DNA of 56,332 nt, from the NCBI GenBank assembly GCA_964440955.1, contig CAYTTP010000003.1:1-56332 (forward strand). The letters run 5' to 3'. The translations under genes were made by a program, and so were the position numbers. Of this stretch, positions 2,664 to 55,061 are shown piece after piece. This DNA is from an uncultured Candidatus Saccharibacteria bacterium. GTDB lineage: Bacteria; Patescibacteriota; Minisyncoccia; Phycocordibacterales; WO2-35-19. The first letter of the stretch is position 1, and every line of letters begins with the position of its first letter. The notes beneath the pieces were generated by a model, which worked only from the letters and a program-made list of their open reading frames with translations, did not search any database and was not told the origin of the DNA.

Positions 2664-5129
2664 ATGGCTAAAAAACCGAGCAAAACCGAAGTGGAGGAAG
2701 TGGCACATGTAAGTGTTGTCCCACGTTCGATCGTGACCGAAATGAAAGAGTCGTTTATCGACTACGCGATGTCGGTCATCACTGACCGTGCCTTACCCGA
2801 CGTGCGCGACGGGCTAAAGCCAGTACATCGTCGCATCCTCTATGCAATGAACACTATGGGTCTCACCGCAAACGCCAAAACTCGAAAGTCGGCGACTGTG
2901 GTGGGAGAAGTGCTTGGTAACTATCACCCACACGGCGATCAGGCCGCTTATGACGCGATGGTCAAAATGGCCCAAGATTTTGGCCATCGTTACCCGCTTA
3001 TCGTCGGTCAAGGAAACTTTGGCTCGGTCGACGGCGATAGTCCTGCGGCAATGCGTTATACCGAAGCTAAAATGAGCAAGGTCGCAGGCGAGCTTTTGCG
3101 CGACATCCAAAAGGAAACTGTCGATTGGGTACCAAACTACGACTCAACCAAAAAAGAGCCAAAAGTATTGCCGGCCGCTGTGCCAAATATTTTACTAAAC
3201 GGTACTTTGGGTATTGCCGTTGGTATGGCGACCAATATTCCTCCACACAACTTGCGAGAGGTTATCGACGCAACTTCATACCTTATTGACAACAAAGACG
3301 CGACCACTGAAGACTTACTCCAATTTGTCCAGGGGCCGGACTTCCCACTTGGTGGCATCATTTTCAATAGCAAAGACATTCATCATGCTTATGCGACTGG
3401 TCGCGGCGGCATCGTCGCTCGCGGTGTGGCAGAGATAGTCGAAGACAAAAATATTTCTCAAATTGTTATTACTTCCATTCCGTTTCGCGTCAACAAATCA
3501 GCTCTTATTGAAAAGATCGCTGAGCTCGTGCGTGACAAAAAAATCGACGGCATCAAAGGTTTGCGTGACGAGTCGACCAAGGACATCAGAGTGGTGATTG
3601 ATCTCAAAAATGGCAGCCATCCTCAAAAGGTCTTAAACTTTTTATACAAGCACACTCAACTCGAAGAAACTTTTCACGTCAACTTGGTCGCTTTGGTTGA
3701 CGGCGTACCCCAAACACTCTCGCTTAAAGGTATTCTTGAAGAGTTTGTGAAGCATCGCCAAGTGGTGATCCGTCGCAGGACCGAATTTGACTTGCGTGAA
3801 GCCGAAGCACGCGAGCATATACTGCTTGGTCTCAAAAAGGCACTCGATCATATCGATGAAATAGTGAAGCTCATCAAAAAAAGCAAGGATGTCGATACAG
3901 CGAGAGCAAACCTCATGAAGGAGTTTAAGTTTTCCGAAATTCAGGCAAACGCTATTCTTGAGATGCGTCTCCAAAAGCTTGCTAGCCTTGAGCGTCAAAA
4001 AATAGAGGACGAATTGAAGGCTATCCAAACACTTATCAAAGAGCTTCGCGATATTTTGGCCAATCCAAAAAAGATTTTGACCATCATCAAAAAAGAGCTT
4101 TCCGAAATAAGTGAAAAGTATGGCGATGATCGTCGCACCAAGGTAGTCAAAGGTGGAGTCAAAATATTGACCGTCGAAGATTTGGTGGCTGATGAAGAAA
4201 ACACACTTATCCTCACTGCTGGTGGCTATGTGAAGCGTACTCACCCCGACGAATACAAAAAACAAAAACGCGGTGGGGTCGGCGTAGTTGACCTTGATAC
4301 CAAAGAGGAAGATTTTGTCACCCATTTTCTCACCGCTTCAACTCATTCGGACATACTATTTTTCACTGACCGTGGTAAGGCATACCAACTCAAGATGCAC
4401 GAACTTCCAGAAGGCAAGCGAGCCACTCGTGGCAAATCGATAATGAACTTCCTATCACTCTCTGAAGGTGAGCGAGTGACTTCTATTCTCCAAGTTTCAA
4501 AAGACTCAAAAGCAAATAAAGATTTGTCGCTCATCATGGTGACAGCTGATGGCACTGGCAAAAAAGTCTCGGCGGCAAGCTTCGCGGATGTGCGGGCAAG
4601 TGGTATCATTGCAATCAAACTCGAAACTGGCGATAGATTGGTGTCTGTTTCCCAGGTTTCAAAGAGTGACTCCTGTGTTATCGTCACGGCGCAAGGCCAA
4701 TCGATCCGCTTCAAAGAGTCTGATGTTCGAGAAATGGGTCGTACAGCGATAGGGGTACGGGTCATCAAACTCGACAAGGGCGACCGCGTTGTCGGAGCCC
4801 ACTCACTTTCCAAAGAAAATGAAAAGTCGGCGACCCTCCTTACTATGGGAGCAAATGGTTATGGTAAGCAAACTCCGATTTCTGAATACAAGATCCAGGG
4901 CAGAGGTGGCTCCGGTATCAAAACAAGCAATGTCACGAGCAAAACTGGTGAGATCATTGCTTCCACTATCATCAAGGGTGACGAGGAGGAAGCAGTCGCA
5001 ATGTCCAAAAAGAGCCAAGTCATTCGACTCGCTTTAAACGAAATACCGACTCTCGGTCGTTCGACTCAGGGGGTGCGTATCATGCGTATGCGTGAGGGGG
5101 ACAGTATTGCGTCGTTTATTTGTCTTTAG
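2664..5129 (+). CDS. gyrA: DNA gyrase subunit A
   Basis: 821 aa. Carries the GyrA N-terminal signature ([27 protein letters not shown] active-site Tyr region) and C-terminal beta-pinwheel repeats. Confidence 0.97.
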
Positions 5130-8751: not shown

Positions 8752-9096
8752 ATGAAAAAAGTATCTATAGCAGTAGCGATGGCTCTTTTGCCACTTTCAA
8801 CCTTTGCCCAACAGCTCGGCAATATCAGCAACTTAGTTGATAGCGCAAGCGGTATAATCAATAAGGTTATACCTATATTGTTTACACTTGCTTTGCTCGG
8901 CTTCTTTTGGGGCTTGGTCAGATTTCTTTTTGGTGGTGCTGAAGACAAGGATCAGGCAAAAAACATTATGATTTGGGGCGTAGTAGCGCTTGCGGTCATG
9001 GCTTCAGTTTGGGGATTGGTCAACTTCCTTGGTTCGGCATTTAACATCAACAAGGATGCCGCTCCTTCTGTAAACCCTCTTATTCCAAAACCTTAG
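8752..9096 (+). CDS. pilin-like small membrane protein, short form with signal peptide
   Basis: 114 aa. Motif: FFWGLVRFLFGGAEDKDQAKNIMIWGVVALAVMASVWGLV. Confidence 0.6.
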   Translation: MKKVSIAVAMALLPLSTFAQQLGNISNLVDSASGIINKVIPILFTLALLGFFWGLVRFLFGGAEDKDQAKNIMIWGVVALAVMASVWGLVNFLGSAFNINKDAAPSVNPLIPKP

Positions 9097-9114
9097 TTGG
9101 TCTTTGGTCTACAA

Positions 9115-9148
9115 AACAAAAGAGCCGTATTGTACGGCTCTTTTGTTT
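9115..9148. terminator. bidirectional intrinsic terminator-like hairpin
   Basis: AAAGAGCCGTA-TTG-TACGGCTCTTT, flanked by an A-run and a T-run. Confidence 0.75.
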
Positions 9149-9187
9149 TCCCTTGAATTTTATTACCTAACATTTAGAATTAGAAAT

Positions 9188-9220
9188 ATCACCCCTAGCC
9201 CCTCTTACTTTAAGAGGGGA
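9188..9220. repeat. TCACCCC-hairpin intergenic motif, copy 2
   Basis: ATCACCCCTAG followed by the hairpin CCCCTCTTA-CTT-TAAGAGGGG. The arms are the same as in copy 1. Confidence 0.55.
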
Positions 9221-9251
9221 ACAACAACTTAATTTTTAATTTTCAATCCTT

Positions 9252-9515
9252 ATGCCTGTCATCAAAAGCTTGCTCAATCAAATAGCCACACTCTTTTTGA
9301 ACCCGCTCATCATTCTTGGTTTTGTTGTTGCTACACTCTATCTTTTTTGGGGTATTGGGCAAATGATACTAAACGCCGACTCAAGCAAGCTCGACGAACA
9401 TCGGAAGGGAGTTATTTGGGGCGTTGTTGGCTTACTTATCATGTTCTCCGTTTACGGCATTCTCCGTCTTGTTATCCAAACTTTTGAGATCGAGTGTAAT
9501 TTGTATTTTTGTTAG
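9252..9515 (+). CDS. pilin-like small membrane protein, short form (divergent)
   Basis: 87 aa. Motif: LYLFWGIGQMILNADSSKLDEHRKGVIWGVVGLLIMFSVYGIL. Confidence 0.55.
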   Translation: MPVIKSLLNQIATLFLNPLIILGFVVATLYLFWGIGQMILNADSSKLDEHRKGVIWGVVGLLIMFSVYGILRLVIQTFEIECNLYFC

Positions 9516-12005: not shown

Positions 12006-12572
12006 GGTCTTCATTTGAGATAACAGCTGTTACTTGTCGGCTTTGGCTTAGCGGGTTTTGCCCGTCTTCGCTAAAGCTTTGGCGGGTGATAGAGGAAAGT
12101 CCGAACATGGGTCTCGACCGAAAGGTACGGGAAAGAGTAGCGGGTAACGCCCGTCGTGCGCAAGCATAGGGTTGCGAACAGAAACGATCCGGTTAAGTCC
12201 GGCTGAAACGGCAAAATACCTATTTCCATGCAAGGCCGTACTGGGAGATGAAAGTTTCTCAGGGTGCCGCTAAAAATCCCCATAAGGATTTTTATCCTGA
12301 GCTAATTTAGGTACATATATCTAAATTGGTCGAAGGATTCTAATCATTAAGGATTGATGATTCGTTTGGCAACAAACGCAACAGATGAATTGTTATCACC
12401 AATTTTGTCTACCGGAGGTAGTAACAAAATTGAGTGTCCCGCGAAACGTAGTGGAGTGGGGCATATCCAACTTCGCCTTTCGATAAACTCAAGGCTACGC
12501 TGGATGCTCAATTTTGCAGCTACTTGCAGTAGGCAAAATTGGCACAGAATTCGGCTTATGATAATGAAGATC
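12006..12572 (+). ncRNA. rnpB: RNase P RNA (bacterial type A-like), expanded to about 567 nt
   Basis: GAGGAAAGTCC at 12092-12102 and ACAGAATTCGGCTTAT at 12544-12559. GGGTAACGCC, CAACAGAAA-like and AGATGAAT motifs lie between them. P1 pairs GGTCTTCATT (12006-12015) with AATGAAGATC (12563-12572). The P3 hairpin is at 12061-12086. Confidence 0.88.
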
Positions 12573-12582
12573 GAAAAATGCA

Positions 12583-12608
12583 AAAACCGCCCCTCAAAGG
12601 CGGTTTTT
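12583..12608 (+). terminator. intrinsic terminator after rnpB
   Basis: AAAACCGCC-CCTCAAA-GGCGGTTTTT. Confidence 0.8.
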
Positions 12609-12788
12609 GCTTCCTCAATTTTTTCTCATCTTTTATTTTTAATCCAATTACACAAGTTTTTACGATCGTGAAAACTTGTGTAGAGAGTATTTTTTTATTT
12701 TTATTGGAAATTTCCAGAATATCCCACGAGCTTGCTGTGGGGATGAATGGAAGTAAACAACCACCAGACTTAGGTCCGGTGGTTGTTT

Positions 12789-12827
12789 ACATATCTAAAA
12801 ATATGTATATTGAATGTGGAGGTGGTT
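12789..12827 (+). promoter_or_regulatory. conserved leader/RBS block of the HEAT-like paralog cassette (copy 1)
   Basis: ACATATCTAAAAATATGTATATTGAATGTGGAGGTGGTT is nearly identical to 13487-13527. It contains the ACATAT/ATATGT inverted repeat and a GGAGG RBS. Confidence 0.5.
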
Positions 12828-18003: not shown

Positions 18004-18076
18004 CCGCCCGTAGCTCAGTTGGTAGAGCAGCTCCCTCTTAAGGAGATGGTCGTAGGTTCGACTCCTACCGGGCGGA
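18004..18076 (+). tRNA. tRNA-Lys(CUU), no CCA encoded
   Basis: Acceptor CCGCCCG/CGGGCGG, D arm GCTC-AGTTGGTA-GAGC, anticodon loop CTCTTAA, T arm GTAGG-TTCGACT-CCTAC, A73. The C1:G72 pair is unusual. Confidence 0.85.
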
Positions 18077-18239
18077 CAATATTGTTTCGCAATATTGTTC
18101 GACCGAGCACGCAAACTGCTTTGCGTGCGTGTAGGAAGTCGAAAGCCGGAGCCATGTTGAGCGAAGCGAAACAGGCGAGGCGGGGTCGCAAGATTTTGCT
18201 AAGCAAAATACTTGTGACCGACTCCTACCGGGCGGACAA
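18059..18239 (+). repeat. tRNA-3'-end-associated structured element, type A (tRNA-Lys copy 1), with 21-nt direct repeats
   Basis: CGACTCCTACCGGGCGGACAA lies at 18059-18079 and 18219-18239. The element carries TGTTCGACCG (antisense to the acceptor 3' strand), a CUGC-apex hairpin, GTAGGAAGTCG (antisense to CGACTCCTAC), a GAGCGAAGCGAA loop, and GGGGTCGCAAG-hairpin-ACTTGTGACC. Confidence 0.78.
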
Positions 18240-18372
18240 GCGTGAAGAAAATCTAAACTGCTTTAGATTTTTAGCTTGTCCGAGACGGAGCCATGTTTTT
18301 GTAGCAACAAAAACAGGCGAGTCAGGATCGTGGAAATTTTTGAGCGACGGCGATAAAATTATCCATGATGAC
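18240..18372 (+). repeat. tRNA-3'-end-associated structured element, type A, second tandem copy (divergent 3' module)
   Basis: It starts with AGCGTGAAGAAAATCTAAACTGCTTTAGATTTTTAGCTTGT, identical to the tRNA-Ala copy. The 3' module GTCAGGATCGTGGA-hairpin-TCCATGATGAC is analogous but diverged. GACAATATTG recurs at 18075 and 18370. Confidence 0.65.
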
Positions 18373-24067: not shown

Positions 24068-24117
24068 GACCAAACTCAAGTGGCTTGACCTCTGATTTTA
24101 TGCTATAATGGCTATAA

Positions 24118-26832
24118 ATGACGCCATTTAACCATTTTACTACCAAAGCCAAAGAAGCCATAAAACGTGCTCACGAGCTCGTTATTGAACGAGGCCAAAA
24201 CCACGTCGGACCACTCCAGCTTTTGACTGCTCTCATCTTGCAGGAGGAAAGTATGGTTGCCTCTATTTTGGATCGCCTGGAGGTTGATACCATCCTTCTC
24301 ACCGATTCTCTTTTTGATGCGATGGAGGGCGCGATTGTTGGCAATACTTCTACTCCTTCATATCAAATTTATTTGACGCCAGAGCTTGCGCATATTATCG
24401 AGCATTCTTCTAAGGTGGCTTCTTCGATGAACGATGAATTTGTCTCGACCGAGCACCTCTTTATTGCTTGTCTAGAAGTGCCAAGTCAGGCGCGCGACAT
24501 TCTTTCCAAATTCAAAATCGAAAAAGACAAAGTGATGTTTTTGATCCAAGAAATAAAAGAAGGGAGAGTCAACGAACCAAAACAGCCGCAAAAAAACAAA
24601 ACTCTGGTCAAATATACTCGCTCGCTCACCAAGCTTGCCAAAGAAAACAAGCTTGACCCGGTGATTGGTCGCGATGAGGAAATTTCCCGAATCATTCAAA
24701 TACTTTCACGTAGGACAAAAAACAATCCAATCCTCATCGGTGAGGCTGGGGTAGGCAAAACTGCTATCGCTGAAGGTCTTGCTATGCGCATGGCAAACGG
24801 TAATGTGCCTGAATCATTGAAGGACAAAGAAATAGTTTCCCTAGATTTGGGGTTGCTTGTCGCGGGTACCAAGTTTCGTGGTGAGTTTGAAGAACGTCTA
24901 AAAAATATAATCAAAGACATTGAAAAGTCAGAGGGCAAGATTATTTTGTTTATCGATGAAATCCACACTATCGTTGGTGCCGGTAGTGCTGAAGGTTCGC
25001 TCGATGCCTCCAATATGCTGAAGCCTCCACTTGCAAGAGGTGAGCTAAGGGCGATTGGCGCGACCACTATCAAGGAATATCAAAAACATATCGAAAAGGA
25101 CCCGGCCCTTACTCGTCGCTTTCAACCGGTGTATGTTTCCGAACCTTCAGTTGATGATGCGATCACTATTTTGCGTGGACTCAAAGAAAAGTACGAGCTC
25201 TATCACGGTGTCCATATAACTGATGATGCTATCAAGTCGGCTGTCAATCTTTCTTCTCGATATATTGCTGACAGGTTTTTGCCGGACAAAGCAGTTGACC
25301 TCATCGACGAAGCTGCTTCTCACCTCAAAATATCGTTGGAAAATATGCCACCTATTTTGCAAGAAACTAATTCTAAAATAGTAAAGCTTGAAATTGAGCG
25401 CGAAGCTTTGAAAAAAGAAGCAGAAAACAAAAATAGCAAAGCCAAAGCCCGCCTCCAAGAAATTGAAAAAGAGGTAGCTGATCTTAAGGAAAAGACCGGA
25501 GAGATAGATTTGAAATGGAAAAACGAAAAGGAGACTGTTGGTGAAATAAAGCGAATCAAAAAAGAGCTTGAATCTGCTCGCCTTGAAGCTGAGGCTGCTG
25601 AAGCACGGGTGGATTTGGGTCGAGCCGCTGAAGTACGCTACGGTAAGATACCAAGCTTAGAAAAGGACCTCGATACCAACGTCAAAAAACTCAAAAAACT
25701 CCAAAGCTCTCGTCGTATTTTGAAAGAGGAAATAACTGAAAATGATATTGCCAATATTGTAGCCAAATGGACGGGCATCCCAGTTTCTAGAATGCTTGAA
25801 GAAGAGGCTGAAAAACTTTCTCGAATGGAAGAAAATTTGAAAAAGAGAATCGTCGGTCAAGATGAAGCCGTCCAAAAAATTTCTGACACGATCAAACGCT
25901 CTCGTGCTGGTATTTCTGATCCAAATCGTCCGATCGGCTCCTTCATCTTTTTGGGTCCAACCGGAGTGGGAAAGACAGAGCTTACCAAAGCACTTGCCGA
26001 ATTTATGTTCAACGACGAGAAGGCGCTCATCCGTGTTGATATGTCCGAATTTATGGAAAAACACTCGGTTTCCAAGCTTATTGGCGCACCTCCTGGCTAT
26101 GTTGGTTTTGACGAAGGGGGTGGTATCACAGAGATGGTGCGTCACCGGCCGTATTCGATAGTTTTGTTCGACGAAATCGAGAAGGCTCACCCTGAAGTGT
26201 TTAACGTGCTCCTTCAAGTGCTCGACAATGGCCGACTTACCGACTCAAAGGGTCGCACTGTCAACTTCAAAAACACGATCATTATTATGACTTCAAATAT
26301 TGGTGCTCAATATATCGATAAGATGGAAAGGATGGGCTTTGGTGAAAATAGGAGTGATGAAAAAAATTATAATGATGTTAAAGACAGGGTGCTTGAAGCA
26401 ACCAAAGACTATTTCCGTCCGGAGTTTTTGAACCGCATTGACGACATTATTGTCTTTGATGTTTTGCCGATTGAAGCGATTCGCGATATCGTCCGCATTC
26501 AAGTTGATTTGGTCAAGGAGCGATTGGCTCAAAAAGAAATTTCTCTCGAGCTTTCTTCTGAAGCTTATGAATATCTTGCGAAAGAAGGTTACAATCCACA
26601 GTATGGTGCTCGCCCACTCAAGCGTGTAATCCAAAATAAGATTTTAAACAAAGTTGCTTCTCTCATTATAAGCAAGGGGATCATGAAAGGTGGCACAGTT
26701 TCTATTTCTGTCAAAAAATCAACCAATGCTTCAGGACCTGATGAACTTGTCTTTGATATCAAAAAAGGCCGTCGGGGTTCAATCATCGAAGCCTCTCTTC
26801 TCGACGACACCCCAAAAGAAACCGTGGTGTAA
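24118..26832 (+). CDS. clpB: ATP-dependent chaperone ClpB
   Basis: 904 aa with a Clp N domain. NBD1 Walker A GEAGVGKT and Walker B ILFIDEIH, a long coiled-coil M domain, NBD2 GPTGVGKT and [10 protein letters not shown]. Confidence 0.96.
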
Positions 26833-26889: not shown

Positions 26890-27135
26890 GAACACCACTT
26901 ATGAGCACGTGAGAGAAAGATGAACGAACATTGGTGGTGTCCTAAGCCCGAAAGTGGCGAGGGTAAGGCCGCTTGAGATCCAAGTCGGACTACCAGCATA
27001 CCCCCAAGATCTTCTGGTTTACTCTAAAGAGAGTATTCCGCTCCATCGTGTGACGATGAAGGCTGTTTTTCGACGTCTCTCACAGGTCCAAGCCGGACTG
27101 TTTTGATTGTAGCATGTTTTTATATATAAGTTTAG
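26890..27135 (+). ncRNA. candidate structured noncoding leader RNA of the RT module
   Basis: About 250 nt with no credible ORF. Stems: ACACCAC/GTGGTGT (26892-26898/26934-26940), GTGAGAGA/TCTCTCAC (26909-26916/27076-27083), CATCGT-GTG-ACGATG (27044-27058). A 13-nt direct repeat lies at 26979 and 27087. Confidence 0.45.
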
Positions 27136-28056
27136 TTGTATAAATCAAATAAAATAGGTTATCCTCTGTTCGGAGGCCTTGTGGATAAACCTGCATTTGA
27201 AAGGTATTTTCTGAGAGATGTAAATCATCAGAGTGGTAGGGTGAAAAATCGAGAAATTTTTGCTCCAAACGATTCAATGCGTGAGGTGCAAGAGGGTATA
27301 GTGGCCAAACTTCGGTCTTTGGAGATTGAGATGCCGAGCGCGACTGGTGGTGTCAGGAATGGTTCGCCAGTCAATAACGTCCTCAAACATTGGTCACCTT
27401 ACAATAAGAGTGCGAGATACTTTTTTCTGCTTGATCTAGCATCTGCTTACAAGAATGTCCTTGTGAGCGATATGTTAGTTGAACTGAAGAGGGTGTGGCC
27501 ACATGATTGCGACGAGAAGTTTGTTCAGAGTGTTATGAATCACTGCTTGATACCGGGTGAGGGTTTGGCAACTGGAGGTAACGCCTCGCCAGATATTTTC
27601 AACCTATGTATGGAGATTTCGATTGATCGGCAAATACGCTCGTATGCCGAATACAACGATCTCACCTACACTCGTTATCTCGATGATCTGACTTTCTCAT
27701 CTCCTTTTCCGATAGGTAAGAGGAAGAGGAATACGATCATCAAGATTCTCACTGAAGCTGGTTGTGTCGTTAACCATCAAAAGTCTCAGGTGCTTGATAT
27801 CGAAAAGCATCATGTGGAAATAAATGGTATCGGCTTGCGTCGTAGCGGACACTTCTTCATGCCTAGTCGGGTCTTGGATGAGTTAAAAAACTTGCTCTAT
27901 CGGGCAACTAGAGGGGAGTCCATTTCCGATTCTCTCATTCAAGGCAAGATGGGCGGGTTCATCTATCTTAGGAGAAAAGGCTTGCTTGCTCTGACCGAGA
28001 GAGAACGTAATATCCTTCGACGGTACGAGCAATATCTGCCGTTGCGCCGGGGTTAA
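27136..28056 (+). CDS. reverse transcriptase, minimal stand-alone type (retron/defence-RT-like)
   Basis: RT motifs: NREIFAPNDSMREVQ, SATGGVRNGSPVNNVLKH, FFLLDLASAY, GLATGGNASPDIFNL, YTRYLDDLTFSS (27676-27687), VNHQKS, EINGIGL. The likely true start is GTG 27181, behind GGAGG at 27172-27176. Confidence 0.88.
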   Translation: MYKSNKIGYPLFGGLVDKPAFERYFLRDVNHQSGRVKNREIFAPNDSMREVQEGIVAKLRSLEIEMPSATGGVRNGSPVNNVLKHWSPYNKSARYFFLLDLASAYKNVLVSDMLVELKRVWPHDCDEKFVQSVMNHCLIPGEGLATGGNASPDIFNLCMEISIDRQIRSYAEYNDLTYTRYLDDLTFSSPFPIGKRKRNTIIKILTEAGCVVNHQKSQVLDIEKHHVEINGIGLRRSGHFFMPSRVLDELKNLLYRATRGESISDSLIQGKMGGFIYLRRKGLLALTERERNILRRYEQYLPLRRG

Positions 28057-28130: not shown

Positions 28131-28535
28131 ATGTCCAGTATCTCGAATAGAGAAATGACATTTGTTGTAGCTGTTCTGTACTCTTTGCCCGAAAAGTGGC
28201 GAGGGGTTGGCCGTTCTTTCTCGTTTGAGGATGTGCAAGATAGGCTACATCTTGCTTGGCATAGACTCTATCAAGAAGGATTGCTTGGGGAGTTTGGTGA
28301 ATCGTTTTCTTTTGACGCTCTTTGTGGCTCAGACAGTCTTGGGCAAGCACTTCGCACAGCTGCGGTAGATGGGCTCATAAGGATCGGTGGCTCTGATATG
28401 GCTTATCATGTTGATGTCCTGAAGCCTGACCAAATTGATCGTATGTTAGAGTCGTGCGTAATAGACCGAAGTGCCGTGACTACTGCTGTCAAACGTCTCG
28501 AAGCTATTCTCGAAGAGAAACCCTCCCCGGCTTAG
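28131..28535 (+). CDS. hypothetical 134-aa protein, RT-associated
   Basis: Strong RBS GGAGGAGG 7 nt upstream of the ATG. Same strand as the RT and 74 nt after it. No motif recognised. Confidence 0.6.
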   Translation: MSSISNREMTFVVAVLYSLPEKWRGVGRSFSFEDVQDRLHLAWHRLYQEGLLGEFGESFSFDALCGSDSLGQALRTAAVDGLIRIGGSDMAYHVDVLKPDQIDRMLESCVIDRSAVTTAVKRLEAILEEKPSPA

Positions 28536-28597: not shown

Positions 28598-28681
28598 GCG
28601 TCGGTGGTAGAGTGGTCAATTACAACAGACTGTAAATCTGTCGCCCATTGGGCTACGCAGGTTCGAATCCTGCCCGGCGCA
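28598..28681 (+). tRNA. tRNA-Tyr(GUA), class II, no CCA encoded
   Basis: Acceptor GCGTCGG/CCGGCGC, anticodon arm CAGAC-TGTAAAT-CTG, long variable arm CGCCCATTGGGC, T arm GCAGG-TTCGAAT-CCTGC, A73. Confidence 0.88.
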
Positions 28682-28872
28682 CAAAATAAAACCCAGCTTC
28701 TGCTGGTGTTTTATTTTGTGCGCCGGAAGTGCAGCTTTGTGTAGCAAAGCGTAGCACGGATTCGAAAGGCGGAAGAAATTTTTTAGCAAAAAAATTTCTG
28801 AGCCGGGGTCGCGAGCGATTTTGCTTGACTGAAGCAAAATCGACTTGTGACCGAATCCTGCCCGGCGCACCA
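28664..28872 (+). repeat. tRNA-3'-end-associated structured element, type A (tRNA-Tyr copy), with 19-nt direct repeats
   Basis: CGAATCCTGCCCGGCGCAC lies at 28664-28682 and 28852-28870; the second copy reads through to ...ACCA. Internal antisense segments are GTGCGCCGG (28718-28726) and GCACGGATTCG (28754-28764). The 3' module GGTCGCGAG-hairpin-CTTGTGACC is at 28807-28852. Confidence 0.8.
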
Positions 28873-29031
28873 CTTCGCTCTGTTATCACAGAGCTTCGCG
28901 GTGCAAGCACAAAAAGATCCCCAGAGATGGTGGTATTTTTGTTATAATTAAGCGAAGTGGTCCCGCGGAGCTAAACCCAGCAAAGCTTTAGCGAAGTTGG
29001 GTAGCGGAGTGGGGCACAAATAAAATTATAT

Positions 29032-29232
29032 GAAAAAGACGCCTTGAGAGGCGTCTGGATGAGGGTGGGGAGTCAGGCTGCCGCAGGACGCGGATTATCC
29101 TATTCTCATAGGACAGACCGCTATTTGCCTATCTCTACCCACCCTCAAGCGGTGAGGATGAAGAGAGCTTCACGCAGGGCGCTTGCGCTGGCACCTGTGT
29201 GGGGTGGGTTGCTCAATCTCCATCCTCACGCA
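29032..29232 (-). ncRNA. unclassified GC-rich structured sRNA (about 200 nt)
   Basis: Consensus promoter upstream and an intrinsic terminator (AGACGCC-loop-GGCGTCT plus U5) at the 3' end. Two long irregular helices: GUGAGGAUGGAGA..GAGC/GCUC..UCUUCAUCCUCAC and GAGGGUGGG.../...CCCACCCUC, with internal GNRA-type loops. Confidence 0.65.
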
Positions 29233-29238
29233 TTTACT

Positions 29239-29267
29239 ATTATAGCAAATGTTTGATTGCCTGTCAA
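29239..29267 (-). promoter_or_regulatory. consensus sigma70-type promoter for the sRNA
   Basis: On the minus strand: TTGACA (29267-29262), a 17-nt spacer, then TATAAT (29244-29239). Confidence 0.7.
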
Positions 29268-29285: not shown

Positions 29286-30584
29286 TTATTTACCAATCAG
29301 GGCTTCACTCCATTTGTAAATATTGCCCGCACCCATAAGGACGATGCAGAGAGGTTTATCTGATTTTATCGTTTCTATTTCTCGTTTTAGTTCCCCAGCA
29401 TTTTCTACTGTATTAGCTTCAGTATGTTTATTGACTGCTTCAGCAAGGGTTTGGTTCGTCACTACACCTGTGGCATTTTCCTTATTTATATATATAGGCG
29501 CAATGAAAACTTTGTCGGCAATTTTTAGCGATTCGACAAAATCGTCAAAAAACATTTTGGTTCGGAGTTCTTGATGTGGTTCGAAAACACAGACAAGGGT
29601 GTGTTCTGGGTATTCCCCCTTTAGAGCTGAAAGGGAAGCGGTGATTTCGGTTGGGTGGTGAGCATAATCCGTATAAAAAATATTTCCATCTTTTTCGTCT
29701 ACCTTTTCGAGTCTTCTCCATGTGCCTCTAAAATCTTTTAGAGCATTTTCTGATTTTTCTTTTGGGATGTTTAAACTTTCAGTTGCCGTAATAGATGCTT
29801 TGGCGTCTAAGATATTGTGCTTCCCTGGTACTAAGAGTTTTATATTCAAATCATTTTTTGTGTAATCCAAAACTTTAGCTTGAACATTTTTCAAAACTGG
29901 TTCGATGTTTGGGTGGTTGGGGTCGGTCACGATAAACCCATCTCGACCAACTTTTTGGGCTATTTCTTCAAAAGCATTTTGAATGTCGGCAAGGTCTTTG
30001 TAATAGTCGAGGTGATCAGCTTCAATATTGGTGATCACTAAAATAGAAGGGGAGAGATTTAAAAATGATCTTTTATATTCACATGCCTCGACGACCAGAT
30101 ATTTTGATTTGCCAGCGACGAAGTTTGTGTATTCTTGGGCCTTTGAATCAATCATTTTCGAACCAACAACGATAGTCGGGTCGAAGCCTGCTTCTTGGAG
30201 AATGTGGCCGATCATGGCAGTGGTCGTCGTTTTGCCGTGAGTGCCAGCTATCGCGATTGTATACATTTGCTTTGAAAGTTCTCCTAAAGCTTGAGGATAG
30301 GTGATACAAGTAAGACCTCGTTTGCGAGCCTCGATAAGCTCTGGATTTTCCTCTGTTATCGCTACGGTATAGATGACAATCTCGACATTATTACCAATAT
30401 TTTCGGGCCTTTGACCGATCATAATTTCAACTCCTATTTTTTGGAGTGCCTCGGTTATTTCTGAAGCAGAATTATCCGAGCCGGCTACCTTTTTGCCTTG
30501 CAAGACAAGCATTTTGGCGATGGCTGAAATCCCAATCCCGCCAATGCCTATAAAGTGATAGTTGTTTTTTGAAAAGATATCCAC
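29286..30584 (-). CDS. murC: UDP-N-acetylmuramate--L-alanine ligase
   Basis: 432 aa. HFIGIGGIGISAIA, the GTHGKTTTT P-loop, and Mur ligase middle and C-terminal domains. Confidence 0.92.
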   Translation of the reverse strand: MDIFSKNNYHFIGIGGIGISAIAKMLVLQGKKVAGSDNSASEITEALQKIGVEIMIGQRPENIGNNVEIVIYTVAITEENPELIEARKRGLTCITYPQALGELSKQMYTIAIAGTHGKTTTTAMIGHILQEAGFDPTIVVGSKMIDSKAQEYTNFVAGKSKYLVVEACEYKRSFLNLSPSILVITNIEADHLDYYKDLADIQNAFEEIAQKVGRDGFIVTDPNHPNIEPVLKNVQAKVLDYTKNDLNIKLLVPGKHNILDAKASITATESLNIPKEKSENALKDFRGTWRRLEKVDEKDGNIFYTDYAHHPTEITASLSALKGEYPEHTLVCVFEPHQELRTKMFFDDFVESLKIADKVFIAPIYINKENATGVVTNQTLAEAVNKHTEANTVENAGELKREIETIKSDKPLCIVLMGAGNIYKWSEALIGK

Positions 30585-30902: not shown

Positions 30903-31952
30903 TTATTCCACCAGATTTACTTCGCGCTCGAGGGTAATGCCGAATTTTTTATATACGCTATCGCTGATATATTTTTGAGCTTTGAGTAAGTCTTTAAATG
31001 AAGCCTTGTTTGGATTGGTGAGGACTAGGGCGTTATTTTTGTAAATAACAATATTTGAAATCGTTTTACCTTTGAGGCCTAAACTATCAATCAAAAAACC
31101 TGCCGGCACCTTGGTACCCTCTTCTGATTCAAAAAGTGGCAGGGTGGGGAATTTTTGTTTTAATTTTTTGGCTGACAATTTTGAGATAAACGGGTTTTTA
31201 AAAAACGAGCCACAGTTTGGGATTATTTTTGGGTCGGGTAGTTTGTGAGCACGTATTTTTATAATAGCTTTTCGTATTTGTTTTAAATTTGGAGACGTGA
31301 TGCCTTGCTCCGCAAAATAGTTTTGAACATCTTTATAATTTGGTATTTTTACATTATTGATATGATCCCCCTTCGCTTTGTTTCGGCGTGGCAAGTTGTG
31401 AGTAGGGTGTAATTTGAAAGTGACATAAGTGATAACCCATCTTTTTGGGTATTTTTTAAAAATACTATTTCGATAACTAAATTGGCAGTCCTTGTTTTTA
31501 AGGGTGACCCATTTTTTTGTTTTTGTATCATAAGCTTCGACCAAAACAATTGTATCTTTTACTTCGCTTCCATAGGCACCAATATTTTGAATAGGGGAAG
31601 CACCAACCGTACCAGGGATAGCGGAGAGTGCTTCAATACCAGAAAGATTTTTGGAAACGGTGAATTTCACGAACTTATCCCAATTTTCTCCAGCTCCTAC
31701 TCTGATCATTGTTGATTTTGAGTTTGTCTGCCTAACCTCCACTCCTCGTATTTTTATAAGGCCGATTATATAAGGAAGTGAGGTATCGGAAAATATACTA
31801 TTGCTTCCCCCTCCTAAAATGATAGTTTTGTTTTTGTCCGATCTTTCTACAAATCTTTCTATATCACTCTTTGTTCTTAAAATAGATAGAGACAGAGCTT
31901 TGCCCCCGATCCGCATAGTACTCAAATGACGCGTTTCCACAGTTTTTTTCAT
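30903..31952 (-). CDS. murB: UDP-N-acetylenolpyruvoylglucosamine reductase
   Basis: 349 aa. FAD-binding PCMH-type N-terminus (ILGGGSNSIF) and a MurB C-terminal domain. Confidence 0.9.
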   Translation of the reverse strand: MKKTVETRHLSTMRIGGKALSLSILRTKSDIERFVERSDKNKTIILGGGSNSIFSDTSLPYIIGLIKIRGVEVRQTNSKSTMIRVGAGENWDKFVKFTVSKNLSGIEALSAIPGTVGASPIQNIGAYGSEVKDTIVLVEAYDTKTKKWVTLKNKDCQFSYRNSIFKKYPKRWVITYVTFKLHPTHNLPRRNKAKGDHINNVKIPNYKDVQNYFAEQGITSPNLKQIRKAIIKIRAHKLPDPKIIPNCGSFFKNPFISKLSAKKLKQKFPTLPLFESEEGTKVPAGFLIDSLGLKGKTISNIVIYKNNALVLTNPNKASFKDLLKAQKYISDSVYKKFGITLEREVNLVE

Positions 31953-31986
31953 ATAAAAATTATATCACATATGATATATTACCAAT

Positions 31987-33495
31987 ATGAGCAATCAACA
32001 ACGCATAGGGGCACTTATCAAAAGTCTTAGGGAAAGGAGAGGTCTCACTCAGCAGGAATTTGCAAAACACCTTAAGACTTCACAGAGTGCGGTAGCGCGA
32101 ATGGAAAGTGGTAATCAAAATTTTACTTCTAAAGAAATAGAGAAAATAAGTGAGGCATTAGATCGCAAGATAATAGCTCTCGATGAAAGTATCGATTTTA
32201 AGATTGAGGGTGGGTATCGTCTTAAAGGTTCTGTTGATACAAACCCATCTAAAAATGGTGCGTTGGGTTTGCTTTGTGCTTCTCTTTTAAACAAATCAAA
32301 GACTACACTTCATGGTATTCCAAAGATTGAGGAAGTTTTTCGTTTGATCGAGGTTTTTAAGAGTATTGGCATTTCTGTCTCTTGGGTTGGTCCTCAATCA
32401 TTAGAAATAATTCCTCCAAAAAAATTTAGTATAAAAAATATAAATAATAAATCTGCTGGCAAAATACGCTCAGTCCTCATGATGATTGGTGCCTTGATTC
32501 ATCACGAAAAGGAGTTTCGCATACCACATGCTGGTGGTTGCAAAATGGGCGAGCGAACAATAGAAGCTCATCGGCACGGACTCAACTCACTCGGTGTTTC
32601 TATTATGACAGGTGAAGATTCTTATAAAATTTCTAGTGGTAAATTGTCCGCTACTCCTATTGTCATGTATGAATCAAGTGATACCGCGACAGAAAACATT
32701 TTGATAGCTGCCTCACTTATACCTGGCAAAACAGTCATTGAATTTGCTCCGCCAAATTACCAAGTACAGGAAGTTTGTTTTTTCTTGGAGACTTGCGGAG
32801 TAAAGATTGAAGGTATCGGTACAACCACGCTTACTGTACATGGTGTGTCTCAAATAGATAGACCGATCGAGTATCACAATAGCGAAGACCCGATTGAATC
32901 GATGATGTTTATCTCGGCTGGTATCACTACTAATTCGACGCTTACTATAAAGAGATGCCCCTATGATTTTTTGAAATTGGAAATGCTCAAACTAAAGAAG
33001 ATGGGGTTGAAGTACAAAATGAGTAAGCAATATTTTTCGCACAACGGTCGAACAAAACTTGTTGATATAACGGTCTACCCATCAAAGCTAGTGGCTCCAA
33101 GTGATAAGATACATGCTCAACCATACCCAGGTATAAACTCTGACAACCTTCCGTTTTTTGTACCGATTGCTACTCAAGCAGAAGGGCGCACTCTCATCCA
33201 TGATTGGATGTGGGAAAATAGAGCTATCTATTTTACTGAAATCAATAAACTTGGAGGTTCAGTAGCGCTCGCTGATCCACATAGGGTATTTGTAAACGGA
33301 CCAACCAAACTTTCAGGTACTCAAGTAGTTTGTCCACCGGCACTACGTCCAGCAATGATTATTTTGATTGCAATGCTTTCAGCTAAGGGGACATCGATCC
33401 TTCGAAATGTATACTCGATTTATCGTGGTTATGAGGAAATAGCAGAGCGTCTCAACGCTCTCGGTGCTAAAATACAAGTAATAAAAGGAATGTAA
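31987..33495 (+). CDS. murA: XRE-type HTH domain fused to UDP-N-acetylglucosamine 1-carboxyvinyltransferase
   Basis: N-terminal region of about 65 aa: LRERRGLTQQEFAKHLKTSQSAVARMESG (HTH_3-like). The remainder has the MurA/EPSP-synthase fold with PSKNGAL and the catalytic-Cys loop PHAGGCKMGERT. Confidence 0.85.
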   Translation: MSNQQRIGALIKSLRERRGLTQQEFAKHLKTSQSAVARMESGNQNFTSKEIEKISEALDRKIIALDESIDFKIEGGYRLKGSVDTNPSKNGALGLLCASLLNKSKTTLHGIPKIEEVFRLIEVFKSIGISVSWVGPQSLEIIPPKKFSIKNINNKSAGKIRSVLMMIGALIHHEKEFRIPHAGGCKMGERTIEAHRHGLNSLGVSIMTGEDSYKISSGKLSATPIVMYESSDTATENILIAASLIPGKTVIEFAPPNYQVQEVCFFLETCGVKIEGIGTTTLTVHGVSQIDRPIEYHNSEDPIESMMFISAGITTNSTLTIKRCPYDFLKLEMLKLKKMGLKYKMSKQYFSHNGRTKLVDITVYPSKLVAPSDKIHAQPYPGINSDNLPFFVPIATQAEGRTLIHDWMWENRAIYFTEINKLGGSVALADPHRVFVNGPTKLSGTQVVCPPALRPAMIILIAMLSAKGTSILRNVYSIYRGYEEIAERLNALGAKIQVIKGM

Positions 33496-35896: not shown

Positions 35897-36052
35897 ATGT
35901 CCCAAGACCAACTTATAAAATTGATGCATAAGGCGACTGGCGAGATCTACTGGACCCGCAAAAACAAGCGAAAAGTAGAGCGCAAGATCGAGCTCAAAAA
36001 ATACAGCAAAAAGCTCCGCAAACGAGTGGTTTTTAAAGAAATCAAGAAGTAG
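35897..36052 (+). CDS. rpmG: 50S ribosomal protein L33
   Basis: A 51-aa ORF not in the track: MSQDQLIKLMHKATGEIYWTRKNKRKVERKIELKKYSKKLRKRVVFKEIKK. This is the L33 pattern (YxTxKNKR...LELKKY...). Confidence 0.85.
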   Translation: MSQDQLIKLMHKATGEIYWTRKNKRKVERKIELKKYSKKLRKRVVFKEIKK

Positions 36053-36064
36053 TCGCAACAAAAA

Positions 36065-36086
36065 CTGGCTCATCGAGCCAGTTTTT
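36065..36086 (+). terminator. intrinsic terminator after rpmG
   Basis: CTGGCTC-ATC-GAGCCAG followed by TTTTT. Confidence 0.8.
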
Positions 36087-36106
36087 GTTAGTATCAAGTT
36101 ACTATA

Positions 36107-36203
36107 GGGCCTATAGTTCACCATGTCATTCGCGAATGACGTGGTCAGTGGTAGAATAGCGGTCTCCACCCCGTCGCTCGCGAGCGACAGGGTCCAAAAC
36201 CAA
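36107..36203 (+). pseudogene. tRNA-Trp-like 5' fragment interrupted by two palindromic insertions
   Basis: GGGCCTATAGTTCA..TCAGTGGTAGAATAGCGGTCTCCA..CCAAAACC shares ATAGCGGTCTCCAAAACC with the real tRNA-Trp. Insertions are CCATGTCATTCGCGAATGACGTGG (36121-36144) and CCCCGTCGCTCGCGAGCGACAGGG (36169-36192). No 3' half is present. Confidence 0.55.
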
Positions 36204-40949: not shown

Positions 40950-41030
40950 GCCGGAGTGGCGGAATGGTAGACGCGCACGACTCAAAATCGTGTCTCGCAA
41001 GGGGTGGAGGTTCAAGTCCTCTCTCCGGCA
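40950..41030 (+). tRNA. tRNA-Leu(CAA), class II, no CCA encoded
   Basis: Acceptor GCCGGAG/CTCCGGC, anticodon arm CACGA-CTCAAAA-TCGTG, variable arm, T arm GGAGG-TTCAAGT-CCTCT, A73. Confidence 0.88.
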
Positions 41031-41190
41031 CAGATTGAGCAAAGCGAAAGTGGTGTCGGAGAGGCGTAGCTTTTTGTAAAAAAGCGTTACGCGGACTTGA
41101 AACCCGATTGAGATTTTTTAGGAGTATCGCGAACTAAAAAACCAATTGGGGTACTGAGTCTGTAAGACTCAAGTCCTCTCTCCGGCACCA
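41012..41190 (+). repeat. tRNA-3'-end-associated structured element, type B (tRNA-Leu copy), with 20-nt direct repeats
   Basis: TCAAGTCCTCTCTCCGGCAC lies at 41012-41031 and 41169-41188; the second copy ends ...ACCA. TGGTGTCGGAGAGG (41051-41064) is antisense to CCTCTCTCCGGCACCA. GGACTTGA (41093-41100) is antisense to TCAAGTCC. It begins with GAGCAAAGCGAAAG. Confidence 0.78.
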
Positions 41191-41224
41191 GAATTTTGCT
41201 CTTCTGTGTTAGAATATTTTTGTA

Positions 41225-45933: not shown

Positions 45934-46116
45934 AATACGAAGTAACGAATTGATTGCGAATATATACGAATGTATCTAAGAATAAATGGAAAAGGCGGAA
46001 AATGCAAAATCGCACCTCAAACAGACCTCACCCTCGCTCCGCTCTCCTTACAGGAGCTGTACACCTTTCGCATTAGGAAATGCTCAAGGTCTTGCGAAGC
46101 TCCACGCATTCACTTC

Positions 46117-46143
46117 TCACCCTCTCCTAGACTTAGGAGAGGG
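46117..46143. repeat. TCACCC-hairpin intergenic motif, copy 4
   Basis: TCTCAC, then the hairpin CCCTCTCCTA-GACT-TAGGAGAGGG. Confidence 0.45.
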
Positions 46144-48684: not shown

Positions 48685-49476
48685 ATGCAGGAAAAGCGCT
48701 TTCAAGAAAGGGCGTCAAGCCGGATAGCTTCGCGCAATAAATTTCGCCACCAGATGCTTGTCGGCTTCAGGATTTTTTTGTTGCTCTGTTTTATTTCGTT
48801 TTTGATATTTTTTTTGAGAACTGAAAAACTGCAAATCCAAAATGTTGAGGTTTTTGGAGTAGTGGAAAGCGAAGCTCGGGAGGTGCGTTTGGCGGCGCTC
48901 GCGTTTTTGGCCAAACCAAAACTAGCCATTGTGCCGGGTACTCATACTCTTTTTATAAATGAAGACGCACTTGCAAAATATCTCAAGCAAAAATCCCAAT
49001 CGATCGAGCAACTAGAAGTCAGTACCGAAATTTGGAATCGAAAAGTTCAAATTTCTTTACTTGAATACTCGGCTGATTTTTTGTGGTGCCGAGGTGAAGC
49101 CGAGTGTTTCAATATGACAAAAGATGGTTTGGTTTTTGAGAGGTCGTCTGAAAGTGGGGGCAAGCTGATTTTTAAAGGTTTGTTGGAAGGAGAACCTGTT
49201 TCCCAAAAATTTGCTACTCCGGAGCGTATGCGAGAGTTTGCTGAAATAGCTACGCTTCTTGCTTCGAAAAATATGAGCGTTTCCTTAATTGAAATTGTTT
49301 CTTTACATAAGGGAGTCATGAAAACTTTAGGGTGTGACATTGTCTTTGATCCAGAAGGAAAGATCGTTGAACAAGTCAAAAATGCTATTACTGTGATTGA
49401 AGACCTTGCCTTGCACGGCGAGGCAGATGTGGAGTATGTGGATGCAAGATTTGGTAACAAAGTTTTTTACAAGTGA
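48685..49476 (+). CDS. FtsQ/DivIB-like membrane protein (POTRA-like), tentative
   Basis: Basic N-terminus, one TM helix, then LQIQNVEVFGV..., which is typical of a POTRA start. Confidence 0.4.
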   Translation: MQEKRFQERASSRIASRNKFRHQMLVGFRIFLLLCFISFLIFFLRTEKLQIQNVEVFGVVESEAREVRLAALAFLAKPKLAIVPGTHTLFINEDALAKYLKQKSQSIEQLEVSTEIWNRKVQISLLEYSADFLWCRGEAECFNMTKDGLVFERSSESGGKLIFKGLLEGEPVSQKFATPERMREFAEIATLLASKNMSVSLIEIVSLHKGVMKTLGCDIVFDPEGKIVEQVKNAITVIEDLALHGEADVEYVDARFGNKVFYK

Positions 49477-49488
49477 TATAATTTTTAA

Positions 49489-49890
49489 ATGAGCTCAACT
49501 TATCATACCGAGTCTTATTTGGTTGCTTATCTGCACTTTCATTATGGTCGAGGTCTACGTGAACTTTTGGGAGTGGCTCAAAATTTACTCTGGTTCATTC
49601 TTCACTTCTTTTCGATAAAACTTTTGTTCCGGACACTTTTTGCGCCGTGGCATCGTTTGGGTGAAGCTTATGGCTCCATTATCAACTTTGAAGCTTTCTT
49701 TTCTGTTTTTATTGTGAATATATTGATGAGGTTGGTTGGTTTTGTGACTAGAAGTGTGGTTATTGTGATGGGCTTGATCGCTTATGTTGTCACCTTTGTT
49801 GGTTCGGTAGCGATGTTTTTGGTTTGGGTTTTTGCTCCGATTTTGTTTGTTGGGATGCTTGTTTTGTCGATAACTTTTTTTGCCATATAA
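49489..49890 (+). CDS. hypothetical membrane protein
   Basis: 133 aa with three hydrophobic helices. Confidence 0.45.
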   Translation: MSSTYHTESYLVAYLHFHYGRGLRELLGVAQNLLWFILHFFSIKLLFRTLFAPWHRLGEAYGSIINFEAFFSVFIVNILMRLVGFVTRSVVIVMGLIAYVVTFVGSVAMFLVWVFAPILFVGMLVLSITFFAI

Positions 49891-54729: not shown

Positions 54730-55061
54730 TCCGGGATAGCTCAGCGGTAGAGCGAGCGACTGTGTCGTGACGCAGCTTCCAAAAGAAATTTTGGTTGAAA
54801 AACGAGGTGAATTCGGGGGAACCCCAAGTGGGCAATCCCGAGCCAATCCTAAATTAAAGAAAGATATTGTTGTGTAAAAACTTTAATTAAGGCAGGTGTA
54901 GAGACTATTCCGAAAGGAAGTACTTACTCCGTATTTCGGAGTCGGGAAGCGCCTCGCTCCTAATAGCCAATTTGGTTAAAGGAGATGATATAGTCCATAC
55001 TTCTAGTAATAGAAGAGAATATGTAATCGCTTGGTCGTAGGTTCGATCCCTACTCCCGGAG
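54730..55061 (+). tRNA. tRNA-Asn(GUU) interrupted by a group I intron in the anticodon loop; no CCA encoded
   Basis: Exons 54730-54763 and 55024-55061 join to give acceptor TCCGGGA/TCCCGGA (U1:A72, G73 as in tRNA-Asn), anticodon arm AGCGA-CTGTTAA-TCGCT, T arm GTAGG-TTCGATC-CCTAC. Confidence 0.85.
54764..55023 (+). ncRNA. group I intron (IC3-like), 260 nt, no ORF
   Basis: The 5' exon ends in U and the intron ends in G. GCAG (54772-54775) can pair with the exon CUGU as P1. The core strings GAATTCGGGGGAACCCCAAG, GAGCCAA and GGTGTAGAGACTA (54895-54907) match the conserved core of bacterial tRNA group I introns. Confidence 0.85.

Follow-up and report, generated by a model that had tools for sequence, protein, structure and literature searches.

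Some bacterial small RNAs (sRNAs) are embedded in the 3' end of a protein gene and are made from a promoter of their own, DapZ of Salmonella and MicL of E. coli being examples. These RNAs are Hfq-dependent, shorter than the RNA described here, and carry a conserved seed. In Firmicutes, RsaE/RoxS use several unpaired C-rich motifs to bind Shine-Dalgarno sites by base pairing. Next to nothing is known of the regulatory or non-canonical stable RNAs of Patescibacteria (CPR bacteria), which have tiny genomes and few regulators. We analysed a patescibacterial stretch of 56,332 nt, referred to here as the window, and found on its minus strand a unit of about 200 nt placed like the 3'-end-embedded sRNAs, directly downstream of murC and in the same orientation. 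The gene order around it is as follows.

24118-26832, plus strand: ClpB
27136-28056, plus strand: retron-type reverse transcriptase (RT)
28131-28535, plus strand: ORF of 134 aa
28598-28682, plus strand: tRNA-Tyr
28683-29031: non-coding stretch of 349 nt
29032-29233, minus strand: the sRNA
29286-30584, minus strand: murC
30903-31952, minus strand: murB
31987-33495, plus strand: murA

The body of the unit (29057-29233, about 175 nt) has a GC content of 0.58, compared with 0.42 for the window and 0.40 for murC, in keeping with the sequence-only reading, which had called this segment GC-rich. The ten tRNA genes of the window range from 0.54 to 0.61, and the sRNA body falls within that range. The sRNA is present as a single copy without similarity to the neighbouring repeats or to the rest of the window, and its sequence is identical across independent assemblies of the same strain. 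The sequencing runs SRR13608701, SRR13608702 and SRR13608705 contain the organism. The following elements were assigned to it.

29262-29267, minus strand: -35 hexamer TTGACA (promoter scan, 12/12 together with the -10 hexamer)
29239-29247, minus strand: extended -10 element TGC-TATAAT, with TG at 29247-29246 and the hexamer at 29244-29239 (promoter scan)
29231-29233, minus strand: predicted transcription start, 6-8 nt past the -10 box (spacing in the sequence)
29149-29231, minus strand: arm 1, a predicted irregular hairpin of 83 nt (MFE structure, pair probabilities)
29202-29210, minus strand: C-rich internal loop AACCCACCC of arm 1, the longest predicted-unpaired stretch (9 nt at P > 0.8)
29060-29147, minus strand: arm 2, a predicted three-way junction of 88 nt (MFE structure, pair probabilities)
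29032-29056, minus strand: intrinsic terminator with an 8-bp stem, a CUCA loop and a U5 tract

The two promoter hexamers are separated by a 17-nt spacer and match the sigma-70 consensus at 12/12 positions, so that the TTGACA and TATAAT boxes that had been pointed out at 29267-29239 on the minus strand were confirmed and an extended -10 TG was added to them. Neither strand of the 56-kb window has a second exact TTGACA-N16-18-TATAAT arrangement, and shuffled sequences gave 0.05 such sites. A relaxed scan of the window returned no site with 11/12 matches, and the sites with 10/12 matches lay mostly 7 nt ahead of leaderless start codons or 11 nt ahead of a tRNA, indicating that the consensus is predictive in this genome. 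The sRNA promoter is by far the best example of the consensus in the window. The intrinsic terminator with its U5 run, which had been placed about 200 nt downstream of the promoter, was also found (29056-29032); it consists of AGACGCCU-CUCA-AGGCGUCU (29056-29037) followed by TTTTT. We infer from these signals in the sequence that the unit is transcribed. The murC stop codon (29286) is 18 nt from the -35 box with no terminator in between, and the sRNA terminator must therefore also end the murB-murC transcripts.

Many protein genes of the window have TGnTATAAT ending 6-8 nt ahead of the ATG and no Shine-Dalgarno sequence (for example at 24100-24118, 31952-31975 and 49476-49489), suggesting that the mRNAs of this Parcubacteria genome are predominantly leaderless. 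An ATG is also located 5 nt past the -10 box of the sRNA. Initiation at A29233 would give an AUG-first RNA with a 6-codon frame (MREDGD), which is probably incidental. On the opposite strand, the ORF at 29044-29256 (70 aa) had no Pfam domain and no homologue among 5.8 billion predicted proteins, and was thus as spurious as had been suspected. The same empty protein search put an end to the use of this antisense ORF as a proxy for mis-called sRNA homologues.

Comparison with Rfam, which the sequence-only reading had proposed for 6S, SRP and others, assigned no family. Rfam 15 at gathering thresholds over the whole window gave none for the sRNA, and at E <= 10, on 801 nt and, with the laxest filters, on 216 nt, it returned only noise-level miRNA matches. 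The earlier view that this is not an SRP RNA, a tmRNA or an RNase P RNA agrees with the lack of any Rfam match and with the finding of no tmRNA by ARAGORN. Rfam detected no gene for 6S, SRP, RNase P or tmRNA in the window; riboswitch and T-box models gave no match, and no ORF follows the sRNA terminator on the same strand. Collectively, the promoter, the terminator, the lack of an Rfam match and the lack of a credible ORF uphold the description of an unclassified promoter-to-terminator non-coding unit of about 200 nt.

The 205-nt transcript was predicted to fold with a minimum free energy of -100.1 kcal/mol, compared with -63.5 +/- 4.5 for shuffles (z = -8.09), and the MFE structure made up 9.8% of the ensemble. 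In this fold, the lower stem of arm 1, GUGAGGAUGGAGA/UCUUCAUCCUCAC, is perfect over 13 bp, its internal loop (AACCCACCC / AA) is asymmetric and its tetraloop, at 29186-29183, is GCAA, while arm 2 has the closing helix GAGGGUGGG/CCCACCCUC and holds a GAGA-capped hairpin (29107-29104) and a short CUGC hairpin. The fold contains two GNRA tetraloops, and it reproduced the two long irregular helices and the UCCUAU-GAGA-AUAGGA hairpin that had been drawn from the letters. A faint likeness between arms 1 and 2, considered as an internal duplication, was not significant (z ~2.6). The plus strand of the region folded less strongly (z = -4.5) and 4 of the 71 pairs in the sRNA fold were G-U, together giving a mild preference for selection on the minus-strand RNA. 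A sliding-window scan revealed that several spacers of this genome, including the neighbouring 28601-28900, fold at z -7 to -12; palindromic elements flanking tRNA genes make up these spacers. Strong values are thus common in the repeat-rich spacers here and the z-score of the sRNA is weak evidence by itself, so the case is carried by the promoter, the terminator and the tRNA-like GC content.

CCCACCC occurs twice, as had been noticed (29208-29202 and 29069-29063), and GGGUGGG once (29144-29138). One CCCACCC copy is exposed in the predicted fold and the other is sequestered. When CCCACCC/GGGUGGG pairing was forced, one alternative joined the C-rich loop to the 5' strand of arm 2 and the other closed the RNA by 5'/3' pairing, and their energies of -80.6 or -81.6 kcal/mol were about 19 worse than the -100.1 of the MFE structure, making a thermodynamic switch or a 6S-like rod unlikely. 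The suggestion of functional alternative pairings through the two copies thus fell away (-80.6 vs -100.1 kcal/mol), as did that of a 6S-like RNA, since the ends are unpaired and the forced 5'/3'-closed fold is 18.5 kcal/mol worse.

Homologues were sought with a covariance model, R1, built from the single sRNA sequence and its MFE structure. Across 80 murC loci from GTDB species-representative Patescibacteria genomes, R1 found only the sRNA itself. With filters off, it gave only partial hairpin matches (<=16 bits) at the 11 closest murC loci and no match of at least 13 bits at 10 RT loci. Identical copies were all that nhmmer recovered over all loci, and blastn against phages and plasmids gave no sRNA match. 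We also scored 25 metagenome and 39 viral loci from CCCACCC...GGGUGGG...CCCACCC patterns, and rejected them because the top R1 scores belonged to GGGTGGG-rich tandem repeats or short GC-rich hairpins. By its MurC homologues the contig belongs to Patescibacteria/Parcubacteria, close to Zambryskibacteria, Niyogibacteria and Vogelbacteria. In a large protein collection, the closest MurC apart from its own is 67% identical, which means that there are no near strains for covariation. The comparative alignment next to murC that had been put forward was therefore carried out and was uninformative, as no relative carries the sRNA. Three positional analogues after murC in relatives were set aside, namely an apparent reverse-strand ORF (L003), a small protein gene (L004) and an unrelated candidate sRNA (L008, 5640-5842). 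The last, in a locus whose MurC is 55% identical, has TTGACT-N17-TAAACT, a terminator and z = -3.2, and lies between murC and tRNA-Tyr; it occupies the same position as the sRNA of the window and is not homologous to it. The sRNA is either very young, fast-evolving, or sited elsewhere in the genomes of the relatives.

The flanks of several tRNA genes in this window carry inserts. The genes for tRNA-Ser, -Lys, -Tyr, -Leu-CAA and, in part, -Ala are followed by an insert of 100-190 nt and then by a second copy of their last 19-50 nt.

587-850; 1328-1560; 18004-18240; 28598-28873; 40950-41200: tRNA-flank inserts

The second copy begins inside the T-loop, and in the cases of Tyr and Leu it is CCA-ended. 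One hairpin module, GGGGTCGCGAG...CTTGTGACC, is common to the inserts of Ala, Lys and Tyr; its G-U pairs fall on the tRNA-sense strand, and similar sequences also stand behind other tRNAs. This module was found in this organism only, among 157 sequences compared (156 loci and the window). Together the inserts have the look of a family, made up of either miniature tRNA-targeting mobile elements or relics of att sites. The stretch of 349 nt that separates tRNA-Tyr from the sRNA (28683-29031) folds on the plus strand at -158.6 kcal/mol (z = -11.9) and contains a 9-bp helix, GUGCGCCGG/CCGGCGCAC, that recreates the acceptor stem of tRNA-Tyr; it is followed by CA, which reads as a CCA end with the preceding C, and then by AGCGAAG-type repeats. 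The repeat family breaks independent assemblies. Logan assemblies of the same strain stop in or beside tRNA-Tyr, or diverge to another tRNA flank at about 28758-28770. In one of their contigs (L001, 7827-8100) the tRNA-Tyr flank element switches to the flank of a different tRNA; the dispersed repeat has probably given rise to a chimeric assembly there. In three relatives murC and tRNA-Tyr were seen side by side. The adjacency of sRNA and RT depends on a single MAG contig, which crosses a dispersed repeat.

A few other features of the window were recorded. A group I intron (54754-55016; 78 bits with Rfam) splits a tRNA-Asn(GUU) gene at about 54730-55061, apparently at anticodon-loop position 35/36. 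The gene was missed by both tRNA finders; the intron fits a class reported for Patescibacteria (PMC13011429). The spacers at 35901-36200, 12399-12800, 9001-9300 and 46001-46400 fold at z -7 to -9 with no Rfam match. The motif GGTCTTGCGAAGCTCCA..ATTC.CTTCTCACC, located at about 46088-46122, occurs again in the relative L003 (about 4587-4622), suggesting a conserved intergenic element.

The neighbouring RT (27136-28056, about 300 aa) gave its best scores with retron RT models (PADLOC RT_II-A, 1.7e-23) and scored 1e-21 with the NCBIfam retron St85 family, below the cut-off. Its family comprises 26 proteins, and the members with a named source and the fetched assemblies are Patescibacteria or Parcubacteria. 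A non-coding region precedes the RT, of about 380-555 nt at all 7 distinct homologue loci and about 300 nt in the window, and the genes downstream of the homologues vary. Within this region, a structured ncRNA of about 180 nt (about 26909-27086 in the window) could be aligned to the locus of a 51%-identical homologue (L086, 1120-1400). Between the two, compensatory changes affect 8 of the 38 predicted pairs, and the closing a1/a2-like helix GTGAGAG/CTCTCAC becomes GTGGGAG/CTCCCAC. These results indicate that the RT is equipped with a same-strand cis ncRNA of its own, and the RT unit appears to consist of this ncRNA and a solo RT. A connection between the sRNA and the RT, next to which the sequence-only reading had placed it, did not hold up, since the RT owns an upstream ncRNA, no sRNA-like element is present at the RT-homologue loci searched, and the join of the sRNA to tRNA-Tyr and the RT is not reproduced in independent assemblies. 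A diversity-generating retroelement at the RT region was also considered and dropped, as the window has no template/variable repeat pair, and homology of the sRNA with the RT gene came down to two collinear 11-mers, which is noise level.

Several other explanations of the unit were weighed. It might be mainly a cis element, the structured 3' UTR and terminator of murB-murC with a secondary promoter, whose GC-rich arms would keep 3' exonucleases away from the mRNA and shield it against convergent transcription off the tRNA-Tyr side. The lack of a terminator of murC's own, with 18 nt from stop codon to -35 box and read-through that must end at 29037-29056, is what would be expected of such an element, and the searches of murC loci found no independent homologous gene elsewhere. 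However, a terminator hairpin would suffice for this role, which requires neither a structured body of 175 nt nor the best promoter of the whole window, and relatives end murC without such an element; we consider it unlikely. It appears quite unlikely that the unit is non-functional or selfish DNA, that is, hairpin-rich repeat debris of the murC-tRNA-Tyr spacer with an accidental or left-over promoter and terminator. The adjoining 349 nt are more structured than the sRNA and belong to the dispersed tRNA-flank element family, many spacers fold strongly, and the sRNA is absent from all relatives examined. Against debris, the sRNA occurs once and has no motif in common with the palindromic tRNA-flank elements, an exact 12/12 promoter with TG is expected 0.05 times by chance, and the difference between the strands and the G-U pairs speak for RNA-level selection.

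A promoter strength and GC content like those of stable RNAs would fit a highly divergent housekeeping RNA (6S, SRP/4.5S, RNase P, tmRNA or Y RNA) missed by the Rfam models, in a window that has no 6S, SRP, RNase P or tmRNA gene. Yet the 216-nt search with lax filters gave no Rfam match at E <= 10, the unpaired ends and the 18.5 kcal/mol penalty speak against a 6S-like closed form, neither an apical AGCA/GGAA pattern of SRP domain IV nor an RNase P P4 can be read from the sequence, and ARAGORN detected no tRNA-like 3' end. Such an RNA should moreover be detectable in relatives, and none was found at their murC loci, so we hold this to be very improbable. Still less credible is a template or partner ncRNA, similar to a retron msr-msd, for the RT at 27136-28056. 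The distance of about 1 kb to a retron-like RT and the long, msd-like hairpins invite this comparison, but the sRNA is on the opposite strand, past an ORF and tRNA-Tyr, and its physical link to the RT is unconfirmed by independent assemblies. Furthermore, the RT has the conserved upstream ncRNA with compensatory changes in 8/38 pairs, and 7/7 distinct homologue loci keep the 380-555-nt upstream spacer with an sRNA-like element in none. Finally, a role as leader, attenuator or riboswitch, or as a leaderless mini-mRNA (MREDGD), in which the CCCACCC/GGGUGGG alternatives would control the terminator, is extremely unlikely. Leaderless genes with TATAAT 6-8 nt ahead of the ATG are in the majority here, the sRNA has an ATG 5 nt past its -10 box, and the alternative pairings are possible in principle. 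In practice they cost about 19 kcal/mol and leave the terminator stem untouched, no same-strand ORF lies downstream of the terminator, and no riboswitch or T-box model matches.

We consider it likely that the unit specifies a discrete, functional, structured RNA. With somewhat more confidence than doubt, we take it to be a genuine single-copy, lineage-specific, strongly expressed sRNA gene whose product acts in trans and whose sequence also provides murB-murC transcripts with their 3' end. In this model, RNA polymerase would start about 6-8 nt past the strongest promoter of the window, make about 195-200 nt and stop at the intrinsic terminator. The same sequence would double as the 3' end of murB-murC read-through, giving a 3'-end-embedded sRNA with its own promoter. 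Two arms are predicted, which are independent, rigid and GC-rich and end in GNRA tetraloops, and the RNA would most likely act in trans, as a stable RNA with a regulatory or protein-binding role. Its likeliest contact would be the C-rich loop AACCCACCC of arm 1, the only long accessible element of the predicted fold, which could pair with G-rich RNA or be held by a protein. That the sRNA acts in trans through this loop is a tentative proposal derived from the model, and we regard it as rather doubtful. No sites complementary to the loop were found near start codons in the 56-kb window, and this, together with the leaderless, Shine-Dalgarno-poor genes, makes occlusion of Shine-Dalgarno sites by the loop unlikely.

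A bolder proposal, which we judge improbable, is that the sRNA founds a new class of CPR RNAs that are abundant and tertiary-structured, and that it works, for example, as a protein-scaffolding or catalytic RNA replacing a function lost in genome reduction. If so, its homologues in Parcubacteria would be too divergent and sited elsewhere, and would have been missed by a single-sequence model confined to murC/RT neighbourhoods. A strongly promoted, GNRA-capped RNA with tRNA-like GC content and no family is a concrete candidate for transcriptome and biochemical studies and a seed for covariance models. At present it is a strain-restricted orphan without comparative support, and by itself it opens no long-standing question.

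Comparison with described systems places the locus as follows. The resemblance to retron msr-msd RNAs lies in the neighbouring retron-like RT and the long hairpins. Unlike msr-msd, which is usually upstream of the RT and on its strand, the sRNA is on the opposite strand about 1 kb past the RT 3' end, lacks a1/a2-closed ends and shows no co-occurrence with homologous RTs (10 loci). It differs from riboswitch, T-box and attenuator leaders in having neither a downstream same-strand ORF nor a model match. It is also distinct from tmRNA and RNase P RNA, as ARAGORN detected no tmRNA and Rfam neither family, and from SRP (4.5S) RNA, since its GCAA-capped helix lacks the AGCA/AGG loop pattern of domain IV and has no Rfam match. 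With 6S RNA (RF00013) it has in common its length (about 180-200 nt), a very strong promoter and a largely double-stranded character, but 6S RNA is a single 5'/3'-closed rod with a central bubble, whereas two separate arms are predicted here and the closed form reaches -81.6 vs -100.1 kcal/mol. Like RsaE/RoxS, the sRNA is terminator-ended, looks Hfq-independent and is predicted to expose a C-rich element, AACCCACCC; unlike them, it exposes one CCCACCC, belongs to a largely leaderless host, has no complementary start-codon site in 56 kb and lacks an Rfam match. In contrast to DapZ and MicL, it has no known chaperone, seed target or conservation, but as in those RNAs it stands directly behind a protein gene of the same orientation, uses a common terminator and has a private promoter by the stop codon. 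The sRNA gene is neither 6S-like nor RT-linked; it is an orphan kin to the familiar promoter-to-terminator sRNAs of bacteria.
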